Of a stretch of 64,000 nucleotides of DNA, positions 12,385 through 57,522 are shown piece by piece. Position numbers and translations under genes: made by a program. The stretch covers positions 6,453 to 70,452 of the forward strand of contig JACRML010000031.1 in NCBI GenBank assembly GCA_016214995.1. The letters run 5' to 3'. The notes below the pieces were generated by a model. That model was not told the DNA's origin. It did not search any database and saw nothing but the letters and a program-made list of their open reading frames with translations. Position 1 is the stretch's first letter; the number at the start of each line of letters is the position of its first letter. This stretch comes from Deltaproteobacteria bacterium. Its GTDB lineage: Bacteria; Desulfobacterota; GWC2-55-46; UBA9637.

Positions 12385-14904
12385 TTAACCCGCCTTGCGA
12401 ATTTTTGCTTTTCCGCTTTTTACTTTTCCCTTTGCGCTTGCAGTTTTGGATTTTTTCTTTTCCTCGTTCAATCCAGCCATGGAAAGACATTCATCCAGCG
12501 TAAGCTCCTGCGGCTGTTTATCTGCGGGGATGCGGAAAAATCTTTTTCCGGCCTGAATGCACGGGCCGTATCTGCCGTTTACCACGCGCACGCTTGTATT
12601 CTCGTCCCATGCCTTGATGATTTTCTCCTGCTCTTTTTTCTCCTTCACAGTTACCAATTCAATGGCACGTTCCAGAGTTACACTGAGCGGATCTTCCCCT
12701 TTGCTCAAGGATGCAAAAATATTTTTATATTTCACATAAGGGCCGAATCTCCCTTTTGCCACACTGACATCTTCATTCTGAAACTTGCCTAACACTTTCG
12801 GCAGGCGGGGGCCGTTTAAAATTTCCTTGACCCTTTCCAGAGAAATCGTGTAAGGGTCTTCGCCTTTGGGAAGCGACACAAATGCATCTCTATATTTTAT
12901 ATACGGACCAAAACGTCCTATGCTCACAATCACCTCATTGCCTTCATGTGTTCCGAGATTGCGTGGCAGTTTGAAAAGTTCCATTGCCTGTTCAAAGGTG
13001 ATGTTATCCACACGCTGGTCTTTGCGAAGCGAAGCATAACGTGGTTTCTCATCGTCATCCTGATGTCCTATTTGAACCATAGGTCCAAACCTTCCGAGCC
13101 TTACGATTACTTGTTTCCCTGTCTTCGGGTCTTTGCCGAGCAGGCGCTCGCCGCTTTGGCGCTCTGATGTTTCGGCAGTATGCTTCACTATTTCATGAAA
13201 GGGTTTATAAAACGCCGCAAGCATCTTCGTCCACACCAATTTTCCTCCGGCAATTTCGTCAAACTCCTCTTCCACCTTTGCCGTGAAATTGAAATCCATA
13301 ATGTCTTTGAAATTATTCATAAGAAAATCATTTACCACCATGCCGATGTCCGTGGGAAAGAGTTTTGCCTTCTCTGCTCCGGTGTTTTCCGATTTAATTT
13401 CTTCTGTGATTTGCTTATTCTTCAAAGTGAAACAACTGAAATTTCGCTTCATCCCTTCGCGGTCTTCCTTAACCACATAATTTCTTTTTTGAATGGTAGA
13501 GATTGTGGGAGCATAGGTTGAAGGCCTTCCAATACCTAGTTCCTCCAGCTTGCGCACGAGTGTAGCTTCGGTATATCTGGGCGGGTGATGCGTGAAACGT
13601 TCTGTAGCAGTTATTTCTTTACCGGTGAGTTTCTCGCCGATTTTCAAAGGAGGAAGAATGCCTTCTGTGTTTTCCTCATCTTCGTCGTCTCTTCCTTCCA
13701 GATAAACTTTCAAAAACCCCTCGAACTTCAGAACTTCTCCCTGCGCAACAAAACTTTCTTCAGCCGTTGATACGCAGATTGTTGCTGTAGTCTTCTCCAG
13801 CAGGGCATCACTCATCTGCGAAGCAATCGTCCTTTTCCAAATCAGATCATAAATGCGGAGTTCCTGCGCATTGCCTTCAATTGAAGAGGCGCCGAGATCT
13901 GTAGGACGAATGGCTTCGTGCGCTTCCTGCGCTCCCTTGCTCTTTGTTTTGTAACGACGGATATTGATAAAGCCTTTTCCGTATAATTTTTCAATCTCCT
14001 TCTTCGCCTGGGCAAGCGCGGTGTCTGAAAGATTTACCGAATCCGTGCGCATATAGGTTATTTTTCCGCTCTCATAAAGCCCTTGCGCAGTTCTCATGGT
14101 TTGAGCAACAGAGTATCCGAATTTTCTTCCTGCCTCCTGCTGAAGTGTAGAAGTGGTAAAAGGAGCGGATGGGGATTTCTTTGCGGGCTTTGTCTCTATG
14201 TTGGCGATGGAGAACTCCGCATTTTTGCATTTTTCGAGGAATGATTTCGCCTCTTCTTTGGTCTGGAACTTTTTCGGCAGTTCCGCTTTCACCACCTCGT
14301 TTTTCTGATTCAGAAAAACAGCCGACACTTTGTAAGATGAAACAGATTTGAAATCTTGTATTTCTCTTTCCCGCTCCACAATCAATCTTACGGCAACGCT
14401 CTGCACCCTTCCTGCAGAGAGGGCGGGTTTCACTTTTTTCCAAAGGATTGGAGAAATCTCGTAGCCGACCAGCCTGTCCAAAACCCTGCGCGCCTGCTGA
14501 GCGTCAACCAAATTTTTATCAATTGTTCTAGGATTTTCAATTGCCTTTTGAATAGCCTCTTTGGTAATTTCAGAGTAGCTTATCCGTTTTGTTTTCTCCG
14601 GCTTCAAGTCCAGCGCTTCCGACAAATGCCATGCGATGGCCTCACCTTCGCGGTCTTCATCTGTTGCGAGCCACACCGTATCCGCACCCTTGGAAAGTTT
14701 TTTTAATTCGGCAACCACAGCTTTTTTATCGGGCGAAATTTCATACACTGGCTCAAAATTATTTTCTACATCTACCCCTATCCCTTTCTCAACCAAGTCG
14801 CGGATATGGCCGATGGAAGACTTCACTGTGAAATCCTTGCCGAGAAACTTGTTTATGGTCTTTGCCTTTGCAGGAGACTCTACTATGACGAGTGATCTGG
14901 ACAT
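12385..14904 (-). CDS. topA: DNA topoisomerase I
   Basis: 839 aa. TOPRIM LVIVESPAKAKTI and active-site ITYMRTDS. C-terminal repeated GRFGPY modules. Confidence 0.95.
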   Translation of the reverse strand: MSRSLVIVESPAKAKTINKFLGKDFTVKSSIGHIRDLVEKGIGVDVENNFEPVYEISPDKKAVVAELKKLSKGADTVWLATDEDREGEAIAWHLSEALDLKPEKTKRISYSEITKEAIQKAIENPRTIDKNLVDAQQARRVLDRLVGYEISPILWKKVKPALSAGRVQSVAVRLIVEREREIQDFKSVSSYKVSAVFLNQKNEVVKAELPKKFQTKEEAKSFLEKCKNAEFSIANIETKPAKKSPSAPFTTSTLQQEAGRKFGYSVAQTMRTAQGLYESGKITYMRTDSVNLSDTALAQAKKEIEKLYGKGFINIRRYKTKSKGAQEAHEAIRPTDLGASSIEGNAQELRIYDLIWKRTIASQMSDALLEKTTATICVSTAEESFVAQGEVLKFEGFLKVYLEGRDDEDEENTEGILPPLKIGEKLTGKEITATERFTHHPPRYTEATLVRKLEELGIGRPSTYAPTISTIQKRNYVVKEDREGMKRNFSCFTLKNKQITEEIKSENTGAEKAKLFPTDIGMVVNDFLMNNFKDIMDFNFTAKVEEEFDEIAGGKLVWTKMLAAFYKPFHEIVKHTAETSERQSGERLLGKDPKTGKQVIVRLGRFGPMVQIGHQDDDEKPRYASLRKDQRVDNITFEQAMELFKLPRNLGTHEGNEVIVSIGRFGPYIKYRDAFVSLPKGEDPYTISLERVKEILNGPRLPKVLGKFQNEDVSVAKGRFGPYVKYKNIFASLSKGEDPLSVTLERAIELVTVKEKKEQEKIIKAWDENTSVRVVNGRYGPCIQAGKRFFRIPADKQPQELTLDECLSMAGLNEEKKKSKTASAKGKVKSGKAKIRKAG

Positions 14905-14915
14905 AATAATAAAGT

Positions 14916-15000
14916 GATTACACGGATTTTTGAAAAGTGATTACACAGATTTAAAAGCAATCTTTTATCTGTGCAATCGTCTTTTGTAATCTGTGCAATC
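14916..15000. repeat. GATTACACAGAT double inverted-repeat element, family G, copy G1
   Basis: Two direct gattacac(g/a)gat units, then two inverted atctgtgcaatc units. Lies between the dprA stop and the topA start. The dprA TGA stop lies inside the last unit. Confidence 0.9.
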
Positions 15001-16111
15001 ATATTCTCCTTATAAACTGTTTTCCAGCCTGCTGCTCAATAAGCCCCTTTAATTCCATATCCAGAAGCAGTGATGATGTCTTTTGGGCGGATAAACCTGT
15101 GTTTTGTATAATGCTGTCAATGAAGCATGGTTCATCAAGAAGGTTCATAATCTTTTCTTCTTCAGGTGAAAGCCGTGGTCGTATCTTTCTTGCTGTGTCT
15201 GTAGTTACTTCTGTTTTCTGATTCCGGACTCCTGATATATTTATTGACAACTCTTCCAATATGTCCCTTATATCTTCAACAAGCTTTGCGCCATCTTTAA
15301 TAAGCTTATTTGTGCCCTTGCTCTTACTGGATGTTACGCTGCCCGGCAGGGCAAAAACATCCCTTCCGTAATCAAGCGCCAATCTTGCTGTTATAAGAGA
15401 GCCGCTTTTTAAGGAAGCCTCTGCAACCAGCACGCCTTTAACAAGGCCGCTGATAATCCTGTTCCTCTGGGGAAAGTTTGTTGCAAGCGGCGGGGCGCCA
15501 ATGGGAAACTCGGACACAACAGCGCCATTTGATATAATCTGTTCATACAGTTTCTTATTTTCTGACGGATATATCACATCAATGCCGCTGCCAAGCACAG
15601 CAATCGTCCTGCCTTTGCCTGCAATAGCCCCTCTGTGCGCCGCCGAGTCTATGCCCCTTGCCATGCCGCTTATAATTGTAATCCCAAGTGCGGCCAATTC
15701 TCTGGATAGTTTTTCTGCAACAGCGATGCCGTATAATGTTGGAAGCCTTGTGCCAACAACAGCTATGGCATTTTCATCCTCTTTACATATTGTCCCTTTT
15801 ACATAGAGATAAGGCGGAGGATCGGGGATTGAAAGCAGGGATTTGGGAAAATCCGCGTGTCTCAGGGTCAGGAATTTAACGTCGTGTTTCTTTATGAGGT
15901 TTATTTCATTTTCTACCCACTTCCACTCGTTAAATCCTTTTATGGCCTGGCTGAGTTTTTTCCCGACACCCTGGGTTTGTTCAAGTCTCTTTACCGATGA
16001 TTCAAAAACAAGTCTTGGCTCACGGAATTCGTCAATGAGCGTCTTATATGCTAGTTTGCCAATTCCCTTAATCCTTCCAAGGGCAAGCCAATATTTTATT
16101 TCGTGAGCCAT
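14999..16111 (-). CDS. dprA: DNA-processing protein DprA
   Basis: 370 aa. DprA Rossmann core GMARGIDSAAHRGA, FPQRNRIISGL. Confidence 0.9.
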   Translation of the reverse strand: MAHEIKYWLALGRIKGIGKLAYKTLIDEFREPRLVFESSVKRLEQTQGVGKKLSQAIKGFNEWKWVENEINLIKKHDVKFLTLRHADFPKSLLSIPDPPPYLYVKGTICKEDENAIAVVGTRLPTLYGIAVAEKLSRELAALGITIISGMARGIDSAAHRGAIAGKGRTIAVLGSGIDVIYPSENKKLYEQIISNGAVVSEFPIGAPPLATNFPQRNRIISGLVKGVLVAEASLKSGSLITARLALDYGRDVFALPGSVTSSKSKGTNKLIKDGAKLVEDIRDILEELSINISGVRNQKTEVTTDTARKIRPRLSPEEEKIMNLLDEPCFIDSIIQNTGLSAQKTSSLLLDMELKGLIEQQAGKQFIRRI

Positions 16112-17339: not shown

Positions 17340-18068
17340 CTATTTTTGGAGTTCTTGAATCTTTGTCCTTGCCTTCACTGCCGCCTCTGACGATGGGTAT
17401 CTCTCTATAAGTAATTTAAATTCACCCATTGCCTTTTCTTTGTTGTTAAGCTCCAAATATGTAAAGGCCACTTTTAAAAGTGCATCAGAAGCCTTATTTG
17501 CATTTGGATAGTTAGCCACCACTTTTTTAAACTCCACCAATGCCTTTTGATAGTCTTTCTGCGAATAGTAGGTTTCTCCAATCCAGTATTGTGCATTATC
17601 TGCCAGTGTATGTTTGGGGTAATTCAGAATAAAATTAGCGAACTTATCAATTGACTCAGGCAATCTGCCTGACATAAACAGGTTTTGTGCCTCATTGTAA
17701 AGTGCTTCCGGACTTGGCAAAGATTCTGCTTTTTTAGCATCTTCTTTTTTTATCGGTTCTTTTTTGGCTTCTGTCTTTTTTATATCTTCGGTTTCAAGTC
17801 TGACAACCTTGAGGTTGTCAGGCGGGATAACAGGAACAGCCATAGCCTTAAGCTCCCCAATATCTTTTTTGCTGACGGCAACCTGTTCCTGAAGCAGAAA
17901 GAGTTTATTATTTAACTCTTCCATGCTTGCATTGGTTTTAGACTGTTTTTTTTCTAATTCAGATATCTGAGTCTTGAGGTCCTTTACTGTTTGCTCCTGC
18001 TGTACGTTTGCACAACCGGTAATAAACAAACCAAGCAATAAGATAAGGTTTGCCGACGATTGTTTCAT
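17340..18068 (-). CDS. cpoB: Tol-Pal system protein CpoB/YbgF
   Basis: 242 aa. Signal ending ITGC, a coiled coil, then the YbgF TPR domain (AQYWIGETYYSQKDYQKA, YPNANKASDALLKV). Confidence 0.8.
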   Translation of the reverse strand: MKQSSANLILLLGLFITGCANVQQEQTVKDLKTQISELEKKQSKTNASMEELNNKLFLLQEQVAVSKKDIGELKAMAVPVIPPDNLKVVRLETEDIKKTEAKKEPIKKEDAKKAESLPSPEALYNEAQNLFMSGRLPESIDKFANFILNYPKHTLADNAQYWIGETYYSQKDYQKALVEFKKVVANYPNANKASDALLKVAFTYLELNNKEKAMGEFKLLIERYPSSEAAVKARTKIQELQK

Positions 18069-18108
18069 ATTTACCTCTAAGAGCTTGTTGAAAAACTCAA
18101 CAATCTCT

Positions 18109-18192
18109 GATTACACAGATAAAAGATTAGATTACACAGATTCAAACTTCTTTAAATATCTGTGTAATCATTTTTTCTAATCTGTGTAAATC
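18109..18192. repeat. Family G element, copy G2
   Basis: Two gattacacagat units, then atctgtgtaatc and atctgtgtaaatc. 40 bp upstream of the cpoB start. Confidence 0.9.
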
Positions 18193-18428
18193 AAGGCTGT
18201 TAATGGCTTTTTCCACAGCCTGCCAATGAACTACGAATCAAAACTTAATCTCCTTTATGATATTTGTCAAGGAGAATTTACAAACTTACAGGTTTTGTAT
18301 ACTATACTTTATATTGGATAGCCAACTTGCAGCAACTGTGATATAATACGCCGCATTTAAAATGTGGTATTGGATTACTGCATGGCAGCTAAAGGTTAAC
18401 ACTGCAACCAAAAGGAGATGATATGAAA

Positions 18429-18633
18429 GATTACACCGATTATAAAGGCGGATTACACAGATTAAGGCAAAGTAACAGTTTTTAATCACTTCGGGTCTAA
18501 TTCCCCGAAGCTTGCTTCGTAATTTTTTTTGTATCAACAACAATTGTAGCTTCTGTGAGGTGTTTTCAGATACCCCGCAGCTTGCTGCGGGGTAGTTCAT
18601 TCTGTGTAATCGTATTTCAAAATCTGTGTAATC
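18429..18633. repeat. Family G element, copy G3, with about 120 bp nested insert
   Basis: gattacaccgat and gattacacagat on the left, tctgtgtaatc and atctgtgtaatc on the right. The insert carries ccccgaagcttgcttcg and ccccgcagcttgctgcgggg hairpins. Confidence 0.85.
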
Positions 18634-18656
18634 AATTCTTTCATAGGAGGAATAAA

Positions 18657-19844
18657 ATGAAAGCAACGGTATCTATCATAAGGCAGGTAGTAATCATTAC
18701 AGTGATTGTTGCTATTTTTTTTAAATCTTACCTGAGTGCAGAGGAGAGTCAGTTTAGAAAGAAATTCATGGAAAACCACAAAGCCAATAGCCTGCAAGCC
18801 CAAAGCATCCTTATTAAAAAAAATAAGGATATCATACCAGCGGAAATTAACTCCCTGATTACAGAAGCTATGCTGCCTGAAAAGAGTTATCAGGAGAGGG
18901 TGTATCTGTTAGACATTGCAGGTGCCATAGCCACAATGAATATTCACTGGAACAACGGTGACGAGGAGTTGCTTAAGAAGGTAGAAAAATTACAAAAGGA
19001 AGAAGTTGAAAAGGAAAAAAAAAGAACCGAAGGGTTTGAAGAAATTAAAAAAATGGAAAAGGTGCCAGGTAATTTTGTTATGACTGCCCATAAGCAGGAA
19101 ATGGCTGCAAAGGGGCTAAGTCCTGTAATCTATCCCCACTGGATACACAGGGCATTCTTCAGATGCAAGGTCTGCCATGAGGACATCTTTATTATGAAAC
19201 GTGGCGCCAATGATCTATCCCAGGCAAAGATACAGGAGGGCAAGCAGTGCGGGATGTGCCATAACGGCAAGATATCTTTTAATGCAAGCGCTGAGGAAAA
19301 CTGCGGAAGATGTCATATTGTTGGTAAGCCTGAATCCAGGCCGCTTATGGATTTAAGTTATTATAACGGCAATAAATTTAAAGAGATTGCATCAAGGGTA
19401 GGTACTGAATGGAATCCCGAAAATCTTTCAGGCGGGAAATTGCCGGTTGATAAGCTAGGGTTTATCAACTGGGTTGAGCTTGACAAGGTGAAGGCGTTTA
19501 ATCCACGTACTAACCTCAATGGGGGCCCAGATGCTGAAGGTGTAAGAGAGACGAACATACTTTTTGAAACATCCATCGCCTTTTTAAAAAATGTCCTGTT
19601 CAGCCATAAAATACATTCTACATGGGTTAAATGTTCTATGTGTCATCCCGATACATTCAAACCAGAGCTTGGCGCAAACAGGGTAAAGATGATTGAAATG
19701 AAAGATGGTAAAAGCTGCGGCCGTTGCCATGGAAAGGTTGCCTTTACTCATTCTGATTGTCTAAGATGCCACAATTTTACAAAAGAAAATACGCCGGAAG
19801 GCGCGCTTATTAACCACGCGCCAACTGCTGCTCCAGCGCAGTAG
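18657..19844 (+). CDS. Hexaheme c-type cytochrome (two c7/c3-type triheme modules)
   Basis: Six CxxCH motifs: CKVCH, CGMCH, CGRCH, CSMCH, CGRCH, CLRCH. N-terminal signal anchor. ATG 18657 has AGGAGG 6 nt upstream. The ORF-track start at 18555 runs through repeat G3. Confidence 0.85.
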   Translation: MKATVSIIRQVVIITVIVAIFFKSYLSAEESQFRKKFMENHKANSLQAQSILIKKNKDIIPAEINSLITEAMLPEKSYQERVYLLDIAGAIATMNIHWNNGDEELLKKVEKLQKEEVEKEKKRTEGFEEIKKMEKVPGNFVMTAHKQEMAAKGLSPVIYPHWIHRAFFRCKVCHEDIFIMKRGANDLSQAKIQEGKQCGMCHNGKISFNASAEENCGRCHIVGKPESRPLMDLSYYNGNKFKEIASRVGTEWNPENLSGGKLPVDKLGFINWVELDKVKAFNPRTNLNGGPDAEGVRETNILFETSIAFLKNVLFSHKIHSTWVKCSMCHPDTFKPELGANRVKMIEMKDGKSCGRCHGKVAFTHSDCLRCHNFTKENTPEGALINHAPTAAPAQ

Positions 19845-36723: not shown

Positions 36724-37161
36724 ATTTTCTATCTCTCGTATTTTATCTAATCTCTTCTGGTGCCTGCCGCCTTCAAATTTTGCCTCAAGCCACGTTTTTA
36801 CCATTTCCCTTGCAAGTCCTTTACCGGCAATTCTTCCGCCGATTACAAGGATATTAGCATCGTTGTGCTCTCTTGCCATTTTTGCGGAATATACATCATT
36901 TACAAGGGCAGCCCGTACATTTGAAAATTTGTTTGCAACTATTGACATGCCAATGCCTGTCCCGCAAATAAGTATTCCTTTTTCAATCTTTCCCATGGAA
37001 ACCTTTTCTGCAACAGGAATACCATAGTCGGGATAGTCAACTGATTCGCTGCCGTTTGTCCCCATGTCAAGGGTATCGACCCCTTTTTCTTTTAAAAAGG
37101 TTTTTATATCTTCTTTCAATTCCAGGCCGGCATGGTCGCTGGCGATAGCAATGGTTTCCAA
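36682..37161 (-). CDS. rpiB: Ribose-5-phosphate isomerase B
   Basis: 159 aa. IAIASDHAGLELK, ILICGTGIGMSIVANK. Confidence 0.9.
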   Translation of the reverse strand: METIAIASDHAGLELKEDIKTFLKEKGVDTLDMGTNGSESVDYPDYGIPVAEKVSMGKIEKGILICGTGIGMSIVANKFSNVRAALVNDVYSAKMAREHNDANILVIGGRIAGKGLAREMVKTWLEAKFEGGRHQKRLDKIREIENSIKESKSQRVSGS

Positions 37162-37181: not shown

Positions 37182-37266
37182 GATTACGCAGATTACAAAA
37201 ATAGATTACACAGATAAGGCTTGGTTTATCTAATCTGTGCAATCGTATTCTAAAATCTGTGTAATC
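37182..37266. repeat. Family G element, copy G4
   Basis: gattacgcagat, gattacacagat, then atctgtgcaatc and atctgtgtaatc. The fabF TGA stop lies inside the last unit. 20 bp upstream of the rpiB start. Confidence 0.9.
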
Positions 37267-38503
37267 ATATAAATTTTTTAAACACCAATGTCGCATTGGT
37301 TCCGCCAAAACCAAAGGAGTTTGACATCGCTATATTTATTTTTCTTTCTCTTGCCTTGTTTGGCACATAGTCTAAATCGCATTCAGCATCAGGTGTTTCA
37401 TAATTTATGGTCGGCGGCATTATGCTGTTATAAATAGAAAGAACTGTTATTGCCGCTTCTATTCCTCCGGCAGCCCCGAGTAAATGCCCTGTCATACTCT
37501 TTGTAGAGCTTACCGCAAGTTTTTTTGCATGACCCTGGAAAACTTTTTTTATCGCCATAGTTTCAGCCGCATCACCTACAGGTGTTGATGTGCCGTGGGC
37601 ATTAATATAATCTATATCTTCAGAATTTATCTCAGCCGATTTTAAAGCCATATTCATACACCTTACGGCGCCTTCCCCCTCTGGTGCAGGGGTTGTCATG
37701 TGAAAGGCATCGGCAGTCATTCCATAGCCGACAACTTCAGCATAAATTCTTGCTCCACGTTTCTTGGCAGTTTTCATATCTTCAAGAACCAATACCCCTG
37801 CCCCTTCGCCCAAAACAAAGCCGTCCCTGTTTTTATCAAATGGGCGGCTGGCTTTTTCCGGTGCATCATTTCTTGTGGAAAGAGCCTTCATGGCGCTAAA
37901 TCCTGCAACACAAAGCGGTGTTATTACAGACTCTGTCCCCCCTGCGATCATTATATCCGCATCTCCCCTCTCTATAATTTTAAATGCGTCTCCTATTGAA
38001 TTATTACCTGTAGCGCATGCAGTTACTGCGCTGCTATTTGGGCCTTTTGCTCCAAGTTGTATAGAAACCTGACCGGAGGCAAGGTTTATAATGACCATTG
38101 GTATAAAGAATGGTGTTATTCTGTTAGGGCCTTTTTCATTTAAGATGTTATGCCAGTGTTCTATAGCAGGGAGGCCGCCTATGCCTGAGCCTATATAAAC
38201 ACCGACCCTTTCTGCATTTTCTGACGTTACCTCTAATCCCGCATCTTTTGCAGCCATGATGCTTGCTGCCACTGCATAATGGATAAAGGTGTCCATCTTT
38301 TTAATCTCTTTTTTTGCTATAAATTCCTCTGGATTAAAGTCAGGAACCTCGCCTGCTATCTTGACAGAATAGCTTGCAGCATCAAACCTGGTAATCCGCC
38401 TTATGCCGGATTTACCTTCAACAATTCCTTTCCAGTTTTTTTCTATACCGGTTCCAAGCGGGCTGATAATACCGATTCCGGTGACAACAATGCGTCTTTT
38501 CAT
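37265..38503 (-). CDS. fabF: Beta-ketoacyl-ACP synthase II
   Basis: 412 aa. [15 protein letters not shown], active-site Cys in [26 protein letters not shown]. Confidence 0.95.
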
Positions 38504-42903: not shown

Positions 42904-43082
42904 TACTCCTTGCTTTTTATGACCTCTCTGCCTTTATATGTGCCGCAGTTGGGGCAGATGTGATGAGGAGCCTTGGGTTCCCCGCATTGAGGGCATAGTG
43001 AAATAGCAGGCTTTGACAGTGCATCATGGCTTCTGCGGTTATTCCTTCTTGTTCTGGAATGTCTCTTTTTAGGATTTGGCAT
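42903..43082 (-). CDS. rpmF: 50S ribosomal protein L32
   Basis: MPNPKKRHSRTRRNNRRSH... with CPQC...CPNC. Start at the second ATG. Confidence 0.93.
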   Translation of the reverse strand: MPNPKKRHSRTRRNNRRSHDALSKPAISLCPQCGEPKAPHHICPNCGTYKGREVIKSKE

Positions 43083-43102: not shown

Positions 43103-43253
43103 GATTACATAGATTTTAGAATACGATTCCACAGAAATGTCATTCCGAGCGAAGTGAGGAATCTCGGTTTGAGATTCTTCAGACTTTGCCCTCAGAATGA
43201 CAGCAACAGCAATACCGCCATCTGTGTAATCTCGTCTTTATAATCTGTGAAAT
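43103..43253. repeat. Family G element, copy G5, with a nested gaatgaca palindromic module
   Basis: gattacatagat, gattccacaga, then the insert tgtcattccgagcgaagtgaggaatctcgg..ccctcagaatgaca, then atctgtgtaatc and atctgtgaaatc. Confidence 0.85.
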
Positions 43254-43259
43254 CATTTT

Positions 43260-43790
43260 TTATTTGAGTTTGAGTTCCTTCAGCTTGGCAAACCTTGTAT
43301 CTGTATGATCTGTCGCATGGCAGCCGCAATTTCCCTGATTTAAATCTGCACCGCACTTCGGGCAGAGCCCCTTGCAATTAGGTCCGCATACAGGCTGCAT
43401 TGGTATATCTAATGAAAGCTGCTCAAAAAGAACTGCATTTATATCTATTTCATTGCCCTTTAAATAGTTGGCGCTGGCTTCTTCTCGCGAGAGTTCCTTT
43501 TCCTTCTCTTTTAAGCCATGTTCAGGAGCAATTGAGTAGACAACGTCTATATTAGAACTTATTTTTTGCTCAAATTCTTTCAAGCATCTGGCACAACGAA
43601 GCTTAAGGATAGACGCCATACGTCCTCTTACAAACACTTCTTCATCTGATTTTAGCAGTGTAAGATTTGCAGAAACAGGCGACAGAATTAAAAAATCTAC
43701 CTTATCAGCGGCGGTCTGCAGCTCACTGCCATTTTCTGCAATATCGAGATGCAATCCCTCTTCAAGTATATCACGGATATCCACCTTCAT
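43260..43790 (-). CDS. yceD: YceD/DUF177 family protein
   Basis: 176 aa from MKVDIRD. C-terminal CxxxCxGLCxxCG..L.....C motif (CGPNCKGLCPKCGADLNQGNCGC). Canonical position upstream of rpmF. The ORF-track extension to 44075 reads through repeat A3. Confidence 0.8.
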   Translation of the reverse strand: MKVDIRDILEEGLHLDIAENGSELQTAADKVDFLILSPVSANLTLLKSDEEVFVRGRMASILKLRCARCLKEFEQKISSNIDVVYSIAPEHGLKEKEKELSREEASANYLKGNEIDINAVLFEQLSLDIPMQPVCGPNCKGLCPKCGADLNQGNCGCHATDHTDTRFAKLKELKLK

Positions 43791-43870
43791 TGTAATTTTA
43801 GAGGTTTTATAATATACAAGAACTGTGTTGTTGTTGTCAAGGATAAAGCTGTCTCCTGTTAAAGCTATTT

Positions 43871-44170
43871 CCGTACAATAGCAATTAAAAACCTCGCTAT
43901 TGTACATCTTCCCCTTGCAATCGCTTCGCAGCAAGTGGAACCAGCCGATTTGCTCGCCCCAAGCTTTGCTTGGGTGCCCCGACTTTGTTATCGGCCATTT
44001 TTGCTCCTCACCGTATCCTCCCGCTGTCCCCCTCCATGAGGGGATAAAGGGGGGAGGGCTCGTCGCAAATAACACACCCCTTTAGTCCCCCCTCTCGCGA
44101 GGGGATTTAGGGGTGTGTTGTCTGGCAGGCAGCTTGCAGGTTCCCCCAAAAATCAAAGTCTATTTTTGGG
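43871..44170 (-). repeat. Family A repeat, copy A3 (longest, with extra modules)
   Basis: Contains all A modules plus cctcccgctgtccccctccatgaggggataaaggggggagg (44017-44057). That module is the one found in frame inside queC. Confidence 0.85.
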
Positions 44171-44239
44171 CTATTTCTTTGTCATTTTGCTTGAGTTTGT
44201 TTTTATAGTATGGTATCAAATCAGCATGAATCATATTAT

Positions 44240-44451
44240 CCCAAAAAATGCAGTTGCATTTTTTGGCAAGCGCAATCTTTGGCCAAATACTGCGTCAAAG
44301 CTGGCTGTCCCAATACTCACATACTTAAAACAGTATGCTCCGTTTTGTCCAGCCAGCTTTTCCTTGTCCCCTGATAGAAACTTTCAGGGGCAGGCTCTGG
44401 CTCAAATCTTGTGTTTGTACCAAAAAATAAAAAACAAATGCATTTTTCGGG
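44240..44451 (+). mobile_element. MITE-like element, copy 1 (212 bp)
   Basis: Terminal inverted repeats cccaaaaaatgcagttgcatttttt and aaaaacaaatgcatttttcggg. No ORF. A homologous copy is at 59129. Confidence 0.6.
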
Positions 44452-44549
44452 TTATAAACTTTCTAAAAACCTTTCACAATGTTTTGGGTGGTTTTACAGA
44501 TGCAGCACATATCTGCTTTTCTAATCATTCTCCTGTGATTTTTAACCTG

Positions 44550-54459: not shown

Positions 54460-54933
54460 TTACAGCATATCATGAAGTGTGATAATCTTATTTACCGAAT
54501 ATTCCTTTTTCCCTGTGGGAAGCTGTATAGCTACTTCATCTCCGACCTCTTTATTCAGAAGCGCCTTGCCGATGGGAGAGGCTATGGATATTTTTCCGTT
54601 TCTTGGGTCAACCTCTTCGGGCGTAACAAGCTCATACACAATCTCTTCGCCTGTATTTAAGTCTTCTAAAAAAACCTTTGAACCAAATGCAACCTTATCC
54701 CTCGGCAGACTGTCTAACTTGATTGATGCAAGGGCGTTTATCCGTGTATGTAAATGCGCAACCCGTGCCTGAAGAAATGTTTGCCTTTCCTTTGCGGCAT
54801 GATATTCGGCGTTTTCCCTGAAATCACCATGAGCCGCGGCTGCCCTTAGCTCTTTGGGCAGGTCTATTCTGAGCTCCTTCTCCAGTTTTTTAAGCTCTTC
54901 TTCCAGTTGTTTTAAGGCAGGAAGTTTATGCAT
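54460..54933 (-). CDS. greA: Transcription elongation factor GreA
   Basis: 157 aa. GDFRENAEYHAAKE. C-terminal FKBP-like SIASPIGKALL. Confidence 0.93.
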   Translation of the reverse strand: MHKLPALKQLEEELKKLEKELRIDLPKELRAAAAHGDFRENAEYHAAKERQTFLQARVAHLHTRINALASIKLDSLPRDKVAFGSKVFLEDLNTGEEIVYELVTPEEVDPRNGKISIASPIGKALLNKEVGDEVAIQLPTGKKEYSVNKIITLHDML

Positions 54934-54966
54934 GCTGCTTCTCCTATGAAAGAATAGATTACACAG

Positions 54967-55103
54967 ATTTTGAAATACGATTACCCAGAAATGTCATTCC
55001 TAGCAAAGCGAGGAATCTCGGCTTTAAGATTCTTCGGGCTTCGCCCTCAGAATGACAGTAATGCTGTCATCTGTGTAATCCACCTTTATAATCGGTGTGA
55101 TCT
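54967..55103. repeat. Family G element, copy G6, with a nested gaatgaca module
   Basis: gattacacagat and gattacccaga, then tgtcattcctagcaaagcgaggaatctcgg..ccctcagaatgaca, then atctgtgtaatc and aatcggtgtgatc. Confidence 0.85.
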
Positions 55104-55104
55104 T

Positions 55105-57522
55105 TCATATCATCTCCTTTTTAATAAGCCTTTTCATCTTTTCAACCGCCTCAAGTGCATCCTTTGCATAACCGTTCGCGCCTATCCTGTCTGCAAATTC
55201 CTGGTTCACCACCGCGCCTCCAACCATGGTCAAAACAGATACACCATGCTCTTTAAGCTTTTTAATAACATTATCCATTTCCATAACAGTTGTTGTCATC
55301 AAAGCTGAAAGACCAACTGCATCTACTTTATTTTTTATTGCCTCTGCTATGATTTTACCGGCAGGGACATTTTTTCCCAAATCAATGACTTCAAAACCAT
55401 GATTTTCCAATAGTGTGGATACAATATTTTTTCCGATATCATGAATATCGCCTTCAACAGTTGCCATCAAAACCTTGCCCATGCTTTGCGCTTTTTCCCC
55501 TTTAAACTCTTTTTTCAACCTGTCAAACGCCTTTTTCATGGTATCGGCAGAGAGCATAACCTGCGGCAGAAAGTAAATATTTTTATTAAACAATCGTCCA
55601 ACTTCTTCAAGTCCAGGTATGAGTCCCGCATTGCTTATCTTCAATGGATCCCATCCATGCTTCAAAGCCTCTTCAACCAATGAAACAATCCCTTCCTCAT
55701 CGCCGTTGATAATCGCATTCTTCAGCTTTTCATCAATTGTTTTAGGTTCTTTTTTTTCTTCTGACTTCTGACTTCTGACTTCTGACTTCTGGCCGTATCT
55801 CCTGATATATCTCTCTGCTCTCAAGTCATGGCCTGTCAGCACAATTGCGGCATGATATGCATCCATCATCAGACTATTATGCGGATTTATAATAGCAGCG
55901 TCAAGACCCGCCTCAATTGCCATTGTTAGAAAATTTGCATTTATTGCCTCCCTGTTCGGAAGACCGAATGAGATGTTGCTTACCCCAAGTATCGTGGAGA
56001 CTCCGAGTTTTTCCTTGACCATCCTAATTGCCTTCAAAGTCTCCCGTGCGGATTTCTGGTCTGCGCTCACTGTCATTGCAAGACAATCTATCACAACATC
56101 GGATTTTGAAAGGCCACATTCTAAAGCCCGCTTTAAAATTATCTCCGCAACGCAAAACCTGCCTTCTGTGGTCGGCGGAATGCCTTTATCATCCAGCGTC
56201 AGGCCGAGCACAGCTGCTCCGTATTTTTTTGCAAGAGGAAGGATTGTGCTTAATTTCTTTTCCTCTCCGCTTACTGAGTTTATCAACACCTTCCCGTCAA
56301 CTGCCTTTAAACCTGTTTCTAAGGCTTCAAGGCTTGAGGAGTCAAGAACTATGGGAAGCGGGCAGTTTTCATTGACTGCAAATACAGCCATCTGCATTGA
56401 TGCGGGTTCGTCTATCCCAGGCACCCCGACATTTACATCTAATATATGAGCGCCTACATCAGCCTGAGATTTTGCCTCTTTGCGGATGATAGAGGTCTTT
56501 TTATCTTTAATTTCCTGCTGGAGAAGTTTTTTGCCAGTCGGATTTATTCTTTCGCCTACAATTACAGGCGGCTGGGCGCCGCCAAATGATATATATCCGC
56601 TGCGGCTCGCAAGCCTGGTTTGGTGGGCATAGCCCACCCTACGACCTCCTGACTTCTGACTTCTAACTTCTGACTTCATTGCCTTAATATGCTCAGGTGT
56701 TGTGCCGCAGCAGCCGCCGATTATCTTGACGCCTGCGTCCAAAAGTTTAGGTACATACTTTGCCATCTCGGAAGGGCTGGCGGGAAATATGGTTTTGCCG
56801 TCTTTGAGATACGGTATACCTGCATTGGGTTGGGCGATTAAAGGCAGGTTAGTAACCTTGCTCATCGCAATAATCGCCTTGTAGATTCCTTCTATGCCAA
56901 GACTGCAGTTTGCGCCAATAACATCAGCGCCAAGACCCTCTGCAACTACGGCAAACACCTCTGGCGGAGTGCCAAGAACAGTCCTCATGGTCTCATCAAA
57001 TGTCATGGTTGCCGCTACCGGCAGGCCAGATGCCTTTGCAGCAATGATTGCCGCCTTCATCTCCCTTATATCCATCATCGTCTCAATGATGATTAAATCC
57101 ACGCCGCCGTCTTTTAGCGCACCAACCTGCTCTGAAAATATATCCACTGCCTCATCAAATGACAGGTCACCCACAGGCTCCAAAAACCTGCCGGTTGGCC
57201 CGAGTCCGCCTGCAACAAATTTATCTTTACCGGCTGACTCTCTTGCGTTTTTCGCTGCATTGAGATTTATTTCATGGAGTTTGTTTTCAAAATTATATTC
57301 CTTTAGCTTGGTTCTATTGGCGCCAAATGTGCATGTTGTAACAACATCAGAACCCGCATTTATATATCCTTTGTGAACTGTCTTTATCATCTCAGGATTT
57401 GTGATATTAAGCTCATCAGGGCAGCCGCCTGGCTTCAATCCAAGCCTCTGAAGCATTGTGCCGGTAGCGCCGTCAAAGAGGATGGGACGTTCATTTAATA
57501 TTTTTAAAAATTTGCTTTGCAT
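55105..57522 (-). CDS. metH: Methionine synthase (Hcy-MT, pterin-binding and B12-binding domains; no C-terminal activation domain)
   Basis: 805 aa. GGCCGTTPEHI, GERINPTG, and the DxHxxG B12 motif GDIHDIGKNIV. Two in-frame repeat inserts. Confidence 0.92.
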   Translation of the reverse strand: MQSKFLKILNERPILFDGATGTMLQRLGLKPGGCPDELNITNPEMIKTVHKGYINAGSDVVTTCTFGANRTKLKEYNFENKLHEINLNAAKNARESAGKDKFVAGGLGPTGRFLEPVGDLSFDEAVDIFSEQVGALKDGGVDLIIIETMMDIREMKAAIIAAKASGLPVAATMTFDETMRTVLGTPPEVFAVVAEGLGADVIGANCSLGIEGIYKAIIAMSKVTNLPLIAQPNAGIPYLKDGKTIFPASPSEMAKYVPKLLDAGVKIIGGCCGTTPEHIKAMKSEVRSQKSGGRRVGYAHQTRLASRSGYISFGGAQPPVIVGERINPTGKKLLQQEIKDKKTSIIRKEAKSQADVGAHILDVNVGVPGIDEPASMQMAVFAVNENCPLPIVLDSSSLEALETGLKAVDGKVLINSVSGEEKKLSTILPLAKKYGAAVLGLTLDDKGIPPTTEGRFCVAEIILKRALECGLSKSDVVIDCLAMTVSADQKSARETLKAIRMVKEKLGVSTILGVSNISFGLPNREAINANFLTMAIEAGLDAAIINPHNSLMMDAYHAAIVLTGHDLRAERYIRRYGQKSEVRSQKSEEKKEPKTIDEKLKNAIINGDEEGIVSLVEEALKHGWDPLKISNAGLIPGLEEVGRLFNKNIYFLPQVMLSADTMKKAFDRLKKEFKGEKAQSMGKVLMATVEGDIHDIGKNIVSTLLENHGFEVIDLGKNVPAGKIIAEAIKNKVDAVGLSALMTTTVMEMDNVIKKLKEHGVSVLTMVGGAVVNQEFADRIGANGYAKDALEAVEKMKRLIKKEMI
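55758..55790. repeat. In-frame ttctgac heptamer array inside metH
   Basis: cttctgac followed by ttctgac repeats. Translated as QKSEVRSQKSE in the linker before the B12 cap domain. Confidence 0.9.
56600..56680. repeat. In-frame mosaic repeat inside metH (palindrome module plus heptamer array)
   Basis: ggtgggcatagcccaccctac plus ctgacttctgacttctaacttctgac. Translated as SEVRSQKSGGRRVGYAHQTRLA. Confidence 0.85.

Follow-up and report, generated by a model that had tools for sequence, protein, structure and literature searches.

In the intervening sequences of 23S rRNA, a very small ORF for a four-helix-bundle 'S23p' protein lies within long inverted repeats whose transcript folds into a stem, and such ORFs are scattered across distant bacteria. 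The attC sites of integrons carry four protein-binding boxes, two on either side of a variable centre, and fold into hairpins; integron cassettes are promoterless and co-directional.

The closest described systems are dispersed repeats. REPIN/RAYT systems pair doublets of REP sequences with a single-copy Y1 transposase (PMC3116915, PMC3337134, PMC5581495), and REP sequences begin with a conserved GTAG or CGTC tetranucleotide head (PMC3733652). Classical bacterial miniature inverted-repeat transposable elements (MITEs) include the Neisseria Correia/NEMIS elements and the pneumococcal RUP (PMC3049150).

Here we report on a repeat family seen first as six copies in a window of 64,000 nucleotides, the whole stretch of DNA analysed, which is C81:6453-70452 of the assembly of one Deltaproteobacteria genome (G000; 1.98 Mb, 99 contigs, 41.8% G+C; C-numbers are contigs of an assembly, and G001 and so on are the relatives compared). 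We describe the architecture of the elements, their census, their presence and absence between species, the duplication of AGGAG, their bias in position and polarity, and the linkage of their boxes to a nuclease gene. The six elements are, in our judgement, probably non-autonomous, gene-less copies of a mobile nuclease-gene cassette, inserted at or beside Shine-Dalgarno sequences and mobilised in trans.

The family behaves in a REPIN- and MITE-like manner, with a nuclease as its partner. Like REPINs, it consists of non-autonomous, hairpin-forming inverted pairs of short palindromic units in tens to hundreds of intergenic copies (here about 70, outside called genes), and like REPIN/RAYT systems it has a single-copy protein gene, inherited vertically, between repeats of the same kind, and copy numbers that vary widely among related genomes. 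Unlike in those systems, the linked protein is a predicted 125-aa PD-(D/E)XK nuclease rather than an HUH/Y1 transposase, each arm consists of two 12-bp boxes phased 21-22 bp apart, the arms start with (T)GATTAC and have neither a GTAG nor a CGTC head, the copies prefer the 5' side of genes (the Shine-Dalgarno region) with fixed polarity, and the same box sequence recurs in metagenome-assembled genomes (MAGs) labelled as many phyla.

With MITEs the elements share a size of 80-150 bp, terminal inverted repeats, the absence of a transposase gene, a target-site duplication in one subfamily (B) and presence or absence among relatives; as with MITEs, copies could be co-transcribed with neighbouring genes and affect their expression. 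Unlike MITEs, they share their ends with no insertion sequence encoding a DDE transposase, the only ORF between arms being that of the GxxExxY nuclease; the duplicated target is a 5-bp AGGAG ribosome-binding site rather than TA, and the arms are arrays of repeated boxes rather than a simple terminal inverted repeat. The resemblance to 23S rRNA intervening sequences lies in a small ORF framed by stem-forming inverted repeats in distant bacteria, although the sites here are junctions of protein genes, not rRNA helices, and the ORF family is another one. The 2 + 2 boxes around a variable centre and the hairpin fold recall attC, but the box sequence, judged by eye, differs from RYYYAAC/GTTRRRY, the palindrome encloses the ORF instead of standing beside it, and copies are dispersed, not arrayed.

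Results

Allowing up to two mismatches, the 12-mer GATTACACAGAT matches the window 37 times, against 5.1 +/- 2.0 times in shuffled sequence, and none of 100 shuffles of the window reached that number. The matches group into six elements (Table 1), all built on the claimed plan of two direct and two inverted 12-mers: a 12-mer, about 10 nt, a second 12-mer, a core, an inverted 12-mer, about 10 nt and a second inverted 12-mer. Boxes within an arm are spaced 21-23 bp apart, and a spacing of 21-22 bp places them on one face of the duplex. Three short copies measure 83-85 bp with cores of 16-17 nt, and the other three owe their length to other repeats nested in the core.

Five of the six positions in the original prediction are correct, whereas the sixth copy starts at 54957 and not at 54967, a difference of 10 nt. 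Every start codon is 11-40 nt away from the last box, in keeping with the proposed closeness to gene starts, and the gene names proposed for the neighbours (topA, cpoB, the cytochrome gene, rpiB, rpmF and greA) are right; ybgF/cpoB, the c7-type multihaem nature of the cytochrome, dprA, fabF and a metH-like gene were confirmed with them. Four copies, those at topA, rpiB, rpmF and greA, do follow the stop of a co-directional upstream gene, and the TGA stops of dprA (14999-15001) and fabF (37265-37267) do fall within the repeat unit, being formed by a T and the GA of the terminal box.

Table 1. Four-box elements of the window, their parts, and the corresponding sites in relatives
Feature	Position	Strand	Last box to start codon (nt)	Description	Orthologous site in relatives
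E1	14916..15000	-	11	Naked (C-type), 85 bp; between dprA stop and topA start, and between the old Shine-Dalgarno AAGGAG (inside the dprA end) and the topA ATG at 14904	Empty in G001, G002, G006, G009; same kind of element in G007, G008; other palindromic fillers in G004, G005
E2	18080..18222	+	40	A-type composite; 11 nt from ybgF/cpoB start at 18068	Empty in G002, G003, G006; hairpin-like ends with a different core in G004
E2 outer hairpin	18080-18108				
E2 four-box core	18109-18191				
E2 outer hairpin	18193-18222				
E3	18413..18649	+	23	B-type; cytochrome gene ATG at 18657	Empty in G004
E3 duplicated AGGAG	18413-18417 and 18645-18649				
E3 outer inverted repeat	18418-18428 and 18634-18644				
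E3 boxes	18429-18633				
E3 mini-ORF	start 18423			MKDYTDYKGGLHRLRQSNSF	
E3 nested repeat	18480-18603			Unrelated, 123 bp	
E4	37182..37266	+	20	Naked, 85 bp; between fabF stop and rpiB Shine-Dalgarno/start (TTG at 37161)	Empty in G002, G006; different insert in G004; single-box remnant in G005
E5	43103..43254	-	20	Naked; just upstream of rpmF Shine-Dalgarno (rpmF ATG at 43082)	Empty in G002, G006; present in G004
E5 nested repeat	43137-43202			GTCATTCCGAGCGAAG...CAGAATGACA	
E6	54941..55118	-	23	B-type; greA ATG at 54933	Empty in G004, G002, G006, G005, with a single CTCCT
E6 duplicated CTCCT	54941-54945 and 55114-55118			AGGAG on the gene strand	
E6 outer inverted repeat	54946-54956 and 55103-55113				
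E6 boxes	54957-55102				
E6 nested repeat	54991-55057			Same second repeat as in E5	

Copies across the genome were counted by a mismatch-tolerant box search, since an nhmmer model of the arm missed arms with 21-nt spacing. This census gave about 70 complete four-box elements and about 30 partial or decayed ones in 1.98 Mb, and none of the complete elements lies inside a called gene; the gene calls were home-made and some starts were wrong, those of topA and rpmF being corrected by hand. Leaving nested repeats aside, the elements measure 83-90 bp, have 34-bp inverted arms that open with (T)GATTAC, and contain no transposase gene.

The complete elements fall into three subfamilies. Subfamily A (36 copies, mean pairwise identity 0.89) has an 83-bp four-box core between two extra conserved hairpins, AGAGcTTGTTGAAAAACTCAACAAtCTCT ... 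AAGGCTGTTGatgcCTTTTTCAACAGCCTg; subfamily B (10 copies, 0.94) has a 90-bp core in a short outer inverted repeat, ATGATATGAAA ... AATTCTTTCAT; and subfamily C (24 copies, 0.75) is naked, with unique flanks. The outer hairpins of subfamily A, as in E2, behave as a separate shell: 36 of the 38 outer-hairpin pairs in the genome enclose a four-box core, one is an empty shell (contig C78, near 14028), and the hairpin-like ends around a different core at the ybgF site of G004 suggest that cores are exchanged.

Within one order the number of copies differs by more than 50-fold. Per strand, this genome has 77 arms and six other species of the genus have 1-9. Counts for three further genera in that order are 64, 65 and 124, and most members of the class lack arms altogether. 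Each of the six window copies has cleanly bounded empty orthologous sites in at least two relatives (Table 1), and G004 also has empty counterparts of A, B and C copies from other parts of the genome. In the two relatives in which the E4 site is empty, fabF ends in KKFEE-TAA and GGAG follows directly.

B-type sites have AGGAG on both flanks when filled and a single AGGAG when empty (E3, E6, C15:3291 and C19:880). The empty E3 site of G004, for instance, reads CAACCAAAAGGAGGAATAAAATG, and the filled site reads ...AAAAGGAG/ATGATATGAAAGATTAC...GTAATCAATTCTTTCAT/AGGAGGAATAAAATG. The duplicated AGGAG is the Shine-Dalgarno sequence of the downstream gene, and its upstream copy, together with an ATG of the element, creates a mini-ORF of 20 codons. 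The pair of AGGAG motifs could instead arise if the element carries one copy and inserts beside the other. Among C-type copies, C27:7086 has a duplication of ATATT; comparison of orthologous sites resolved no clear target duplication for most C copies, because most of these sites in the closest relative, G004, carry other fillers. Insertion/deletion polymorphism, the breadth of copy-number variation and the duplication of AGGAG in one subfamily all favour the option, raised in the original prediction, of a highly site-selective REP- or MITE-like element.

Many operon junctions with a four-box element in this genome carry unrelated short tandem or palindromic fillers in G004 and G005, among them runs of AATCGTAAA..., GGTTAAG..., CAGACTA... 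and CAAGATTCAAG/CTTGCAACTTGCAAC, and similar runs flank genes in G000. Such junctions may thus be general hot spots. Separately, one element (C47:9912-10001) is 100% identical, with at least 100 bp of flank on each side, to C67:5004-5293 of G004, against 86-92% identity elsewhere between the two genomes, which points to recent transfer, recombination or cross-assembly.

The position of copies relative to genes depends on the subfamily. The 35 nt in front of starts account for 12.5% of non-coding bases by our rough gene calls; the same interval holds 9/10 copies of subfamily B (p = 7e-8) and 18/24 of subfamily C (p = 3e-12), or 27 of the 34 taken together. Subfamily A has no start bias (7/36 copies, p = 0.16), so that the original prediction of strict placement in front of genes holds strongly for B and C and fails for the 36 hairpin-flanked copies. 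Co-directional junctions accommodate 21/24 C copies; most of these have the upstream stop at -2 to +15 nt and the start at a distance of 10-31 nt. Convergent gene pairs have none of the 34 B or C copies between them.

Orientation is constrained too. The two arms differ in their spacers, one resembling TATAAAGGCG and the other GTATTTCAAA, and in 30/33 B and C copies the TATAAAGGCG-like arm faces the upstream gene and the GTATTTCAAA-like arm the Shine-Dalgarno sequence and start (p = 1.4e-6); E4 is one of the three copies with reversed polarity. Entering from the upstream side, stops occur within 60 nt in all three frames of 17/33 copies and in two frames of 14/33.

In a few cases, most clearly E1, the element separates the Shine-Dalgarno sequence from the start codon. 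In empty relatives dprA and topA overlap in GTGA, with AAGGAGG 5 nt upstream, and topA of insert-free relatives starts with GTG or TTG. Genomes with any filler start topA with ATG (14902-14904 in the window) and have a changed second residue. The E1-type element of G000, G007 and G008 comes after AAGGAG, and E1 provides the TGA stop of dprA, followed by an A/T-rich tail and the new topA ATG. If the E1 hairpin folds, it would bring the Shine-Dalgarno sequence and the topA ATG to within about 16 nt of one another. New stops, new starts, decoy mini-ORFs and the separation of Shine-Dalgarno sequence from start make automatic gene calls near these repeats error-prone.

Conservation is concentrated in the boxes, whose columns are 77-100% conserved with only box position 9 below 88%, and the spacers and core vary. 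The predicted single-strand fold has an energy of -28 to -32 kcal/mol, against -8 to -12 kcal/mol for shuffles. At 149 variant positions in paired boxes the change was compensated once, a G-U type pair was kept in 44 cases and the pair was broken in 104, which gives no sign of selection maintaining pairing. This pattern of conservation fits recognition of the box sequence, or recent copying, better than a selected RNA helix. Rfam yielded no family match, either for the whole window at gathering thresholds or for 18000-18700 at E <=10, the only hits being tRNAs and chance matches.

A full-length form of the element lies outside the window at C15:26274-26744 (471 bp), where an ORF of 125 aa (C15:26361-26738) sits between the same arms. 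The ORF encodes a GxxExxY protein (TIGR04256, 1e-36; PF13366 PDDEXK_3, 2e-34); the gene has one copy in the genome, in which no other ORF was found between arms. In general the cassette is about 0.45 kb long, with phased inverted pairs of (T)GATTACACAGAT bracketing a gene for 122-125 aa. Its polarity is that of the gene-less copies, the ORF is co-directional with the downstream host gene, and the TAA stop of the ORF is the start of the first inverted box.

The single-copy GxxExxY gene of G002 and that of G012 are likewise abutted by boxes on both sides, and that of G007 has one arm. In G000, G002 and G007 the gene lies upstream of the same host gene, which indicates vertical inheritance and means that the full-length cassette has not been seen moving. 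In a metagenome sample of 80 loci encoding GxxExxY relatives of 58-87% identity, boxes adjoin the gene in the expected orientation at all 80, lie on both sides at 74/80, and number at least two per side at 49/80. Boxes typically stand at -32/-10 relative to the ATG and at -6/+14 relative to the end of the ORF.

Across all 13 genomes of the order, the gene is present in 3/4 high-copy and 1/9 low-copy genomes, a borderline association (one-sided Fisher test, about 0.05). No GxxExxY gene was detected in G008 (65 arms per strand; assembly 91% complete) or in G021 (19 arms per strand; assembly 80% complete).

GxxExxY (TIGR04256/PF13366) is, to our knowledge, a widespread protein family without an assigned function, and we know of no nuclease or transposition activity of any of its members; the literature that we searched describes neither activity and mentions the name only in passing. 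Residues E28, Y31, D67, E77 and K79 are invariant in 54 sequences. Searching solved structures with the nuclease sequence returned no match. The AlphaFold model (pLDDT 92) comes closest to Cas4 SSO0001, followed by Cas4 Pcal_0546, lambda exonuclease and MGME1, with Hjc further down. The protein is a predicted PD-(D/E)XK nuclease with conserved E28, D67, E77 and K79 and a Cas4-like fold, and in the model proposed below it would act on the boxes.

More than 114 contigs carry the exact double box; they come from MAGs, some perhaps mis-binned, whose labels span more than 12 phyla. The labels include Omnitrophota, Elusimicrobiota, Planctomycetota, Deltaproteobacteria, Nitrospirae, Nitrospinae, WOR-3, Stahlbacteria, Latescibacterota, Clostridia and Patescibacteria, and one MAG is labelled Nanoarchaeia. 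The 2 + 2 plan recurs at most of these loci, around a core of about 16 nt; among the matches listed, 5/80 double-box loci have a GxxExxY gene, which lies beside the boxes in 3. Phages were considered as a reservoir and rejected, the exact double box being found in only 1 of 2.9 million viral contigs.

Discussion

Taken as gene-less copies of a nuclease cassette, the elements suggest the following model. The nuclease would bind boxes phased two helical turns apart on both arms and, once bound, would mobilise the gene-less copies in trans; these would enter junctions between co-directional genes, in or next to the Shine-Dalgarno sequence and almost always with the same polarity. Insertion may be tolerated in several ways. 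The upstream arm would close the incoming frames, with TGA drawn from T+GATTAC and TAA after the second box; the Shine-Dalgarno sequence would be kept, or doubled as the 5-bp AGGAG repeat in subfamily B; and the transcribed element would form a hairpin whose stem is roughly 30 bp long. As a target, a ribosome-binding site whose AGGAG becomes duplicated is unusual, and such a choice would explain how repeats come to lie inside essential operons (dprA-topA, fabF-rpiB, rpmF, greA) without death of the host. The link to a moving dispersed repeat also gives the GxxExxY family a testable role. What counts against the model is that the 125-aa PD-(D/E)XK protein has no obvious strand-transfer function, and the extra outer repeats of A and B mean that targeting in those subfamilies may belong to different machinery.

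The elements may otherwise be viewed as ordinary MITEs moved by some other transposase, Y1 (IS200/RAYT-like) or DDE, with the GxxExxY gene as cargo that was trapped once and then spread. We regard this as unlikely, even though G000, with 13 Y1_Tnp matches, ranks first among 41 relatives, A and B clearly use additional outer terminal repeats, and two arm-rich genomes are without a detected GxxExxY gene. The RAYT/IS200 partner whose presence had been suggested did not emerge: none of the 13 PF01797 loci of G000 has a box within 1.5 kb, the gene that the boxes do flank is GxxExxY, and no other ORF occurs between arms in this genome. Boxes at fixed offsets, sharing the start and stop codons of the ORF at 80 diverged loci, point to co-evolution and not to chance capture. 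Several of the Y1_Tnp matches are frames of 220-330 aa.

Placement in front of genes might also be no more than survivorship, with insertion at random and only those copies seen in a compact genome that hit no gene. The lack of copies in genes, the many junctions that measured only 10-30 nt before insertion, and the unrelated repeats that occupy the same junctions in G004 and G005 are all compatible with this explanation. It is nonetheless improbable, more so than a foreign transposase, given that 27/34 B and C copies crowd into an interval with 12.5% of non-coding bases, that none lies between convergent genes, where harm should be least, that polarity is fixed in 30/33, that four B-type sites have the same AGGAG duplication, and that subfamily A in the same genome has no start bias.

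Phased boxes near starts resemble operators, but the remaining proposal, in essence the main one of the original prediction, that the copies are host regulatory devices (operators of a global regulator, insulators, or 5'-UTR or intercistronic RNA structures), can be set aside as highly improbable in spite of their fixed polarity near start codons, very stable predicted hairpins (-28 to -32 against about -10 kcal/mol for shuffles) and a topA hairpin that could join Shine-Dalgarno sequence and ATG, seeing that the same junctions are empty or hold unrelated repeats in congeners, the genes served are unrelated housekeeping genes, copy number runs from 1 to more than 100 among close relatives, covariation is absent (1/149), Rfam has no match, and the labels of MAGs with identical boxes span more than 12 phyla.

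Returning to the nuclease cassette, we searched the literature and found no paper on the box sequence or describing the element, and for MITEs in combination with Shine-Dalgarno sequences only a paper on pneumococcal repeats. The GxxExxY cassette is not a published family; we found no published description of it. A wider reading, which we offer tentatively and hold with somewhat less than even confidence, is that the cassette and its copies form an undescribed selfish class: a minimal Cas4-like GxxExxY nuclease with phased inverted arrays of 12-bp boxes, parallel to RAYT and REPIN, whose gene-less copies would home to Shine-Dalgarno sequences at operon junctions with fixed polarity, be translationally harmless in design and, being tolerated, persist in MAGs labelled as a dozen or more phyla. 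If this reading is true, harmlessness would be reached in three ways, by stops in the incoming frames, by a duplicated or preserved ribosome-binding site, and by a hairpin that bridges Shine-Dalgarno sequence and start (topA), and a nuclease-based counterpart would be added to the tyrosine-transposase REPIN systems.

Other repeats are associated with these elements. The 123-bp repeat nested in E3 has two G+C-rich hairpins, CTTCGGG...CCCCGAAG and CCCCGCAGCTTGCTGCGGGG, and its 11 genome copies, at least 98% identical, make it look like a small element in its own right that was active recently. The second nested repeat, ATGTCATTCCGAGCGAAG...CCCTCAGAATGACA, has about 17 genome copies and stands directly after the second box in E5, in E6, and at C20:32582 and C51:3204; at least four independent four-box elements, from different subfamilies, have it at this place, and the palindrome centre itself seems to be a target. 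Elsewhere in the window lies another multi-copy repeat region, 43864-44474; it takes in the end of the ORF at 43260-44075 together with the start of the following gene and has matches at many sites in G004 and G005.
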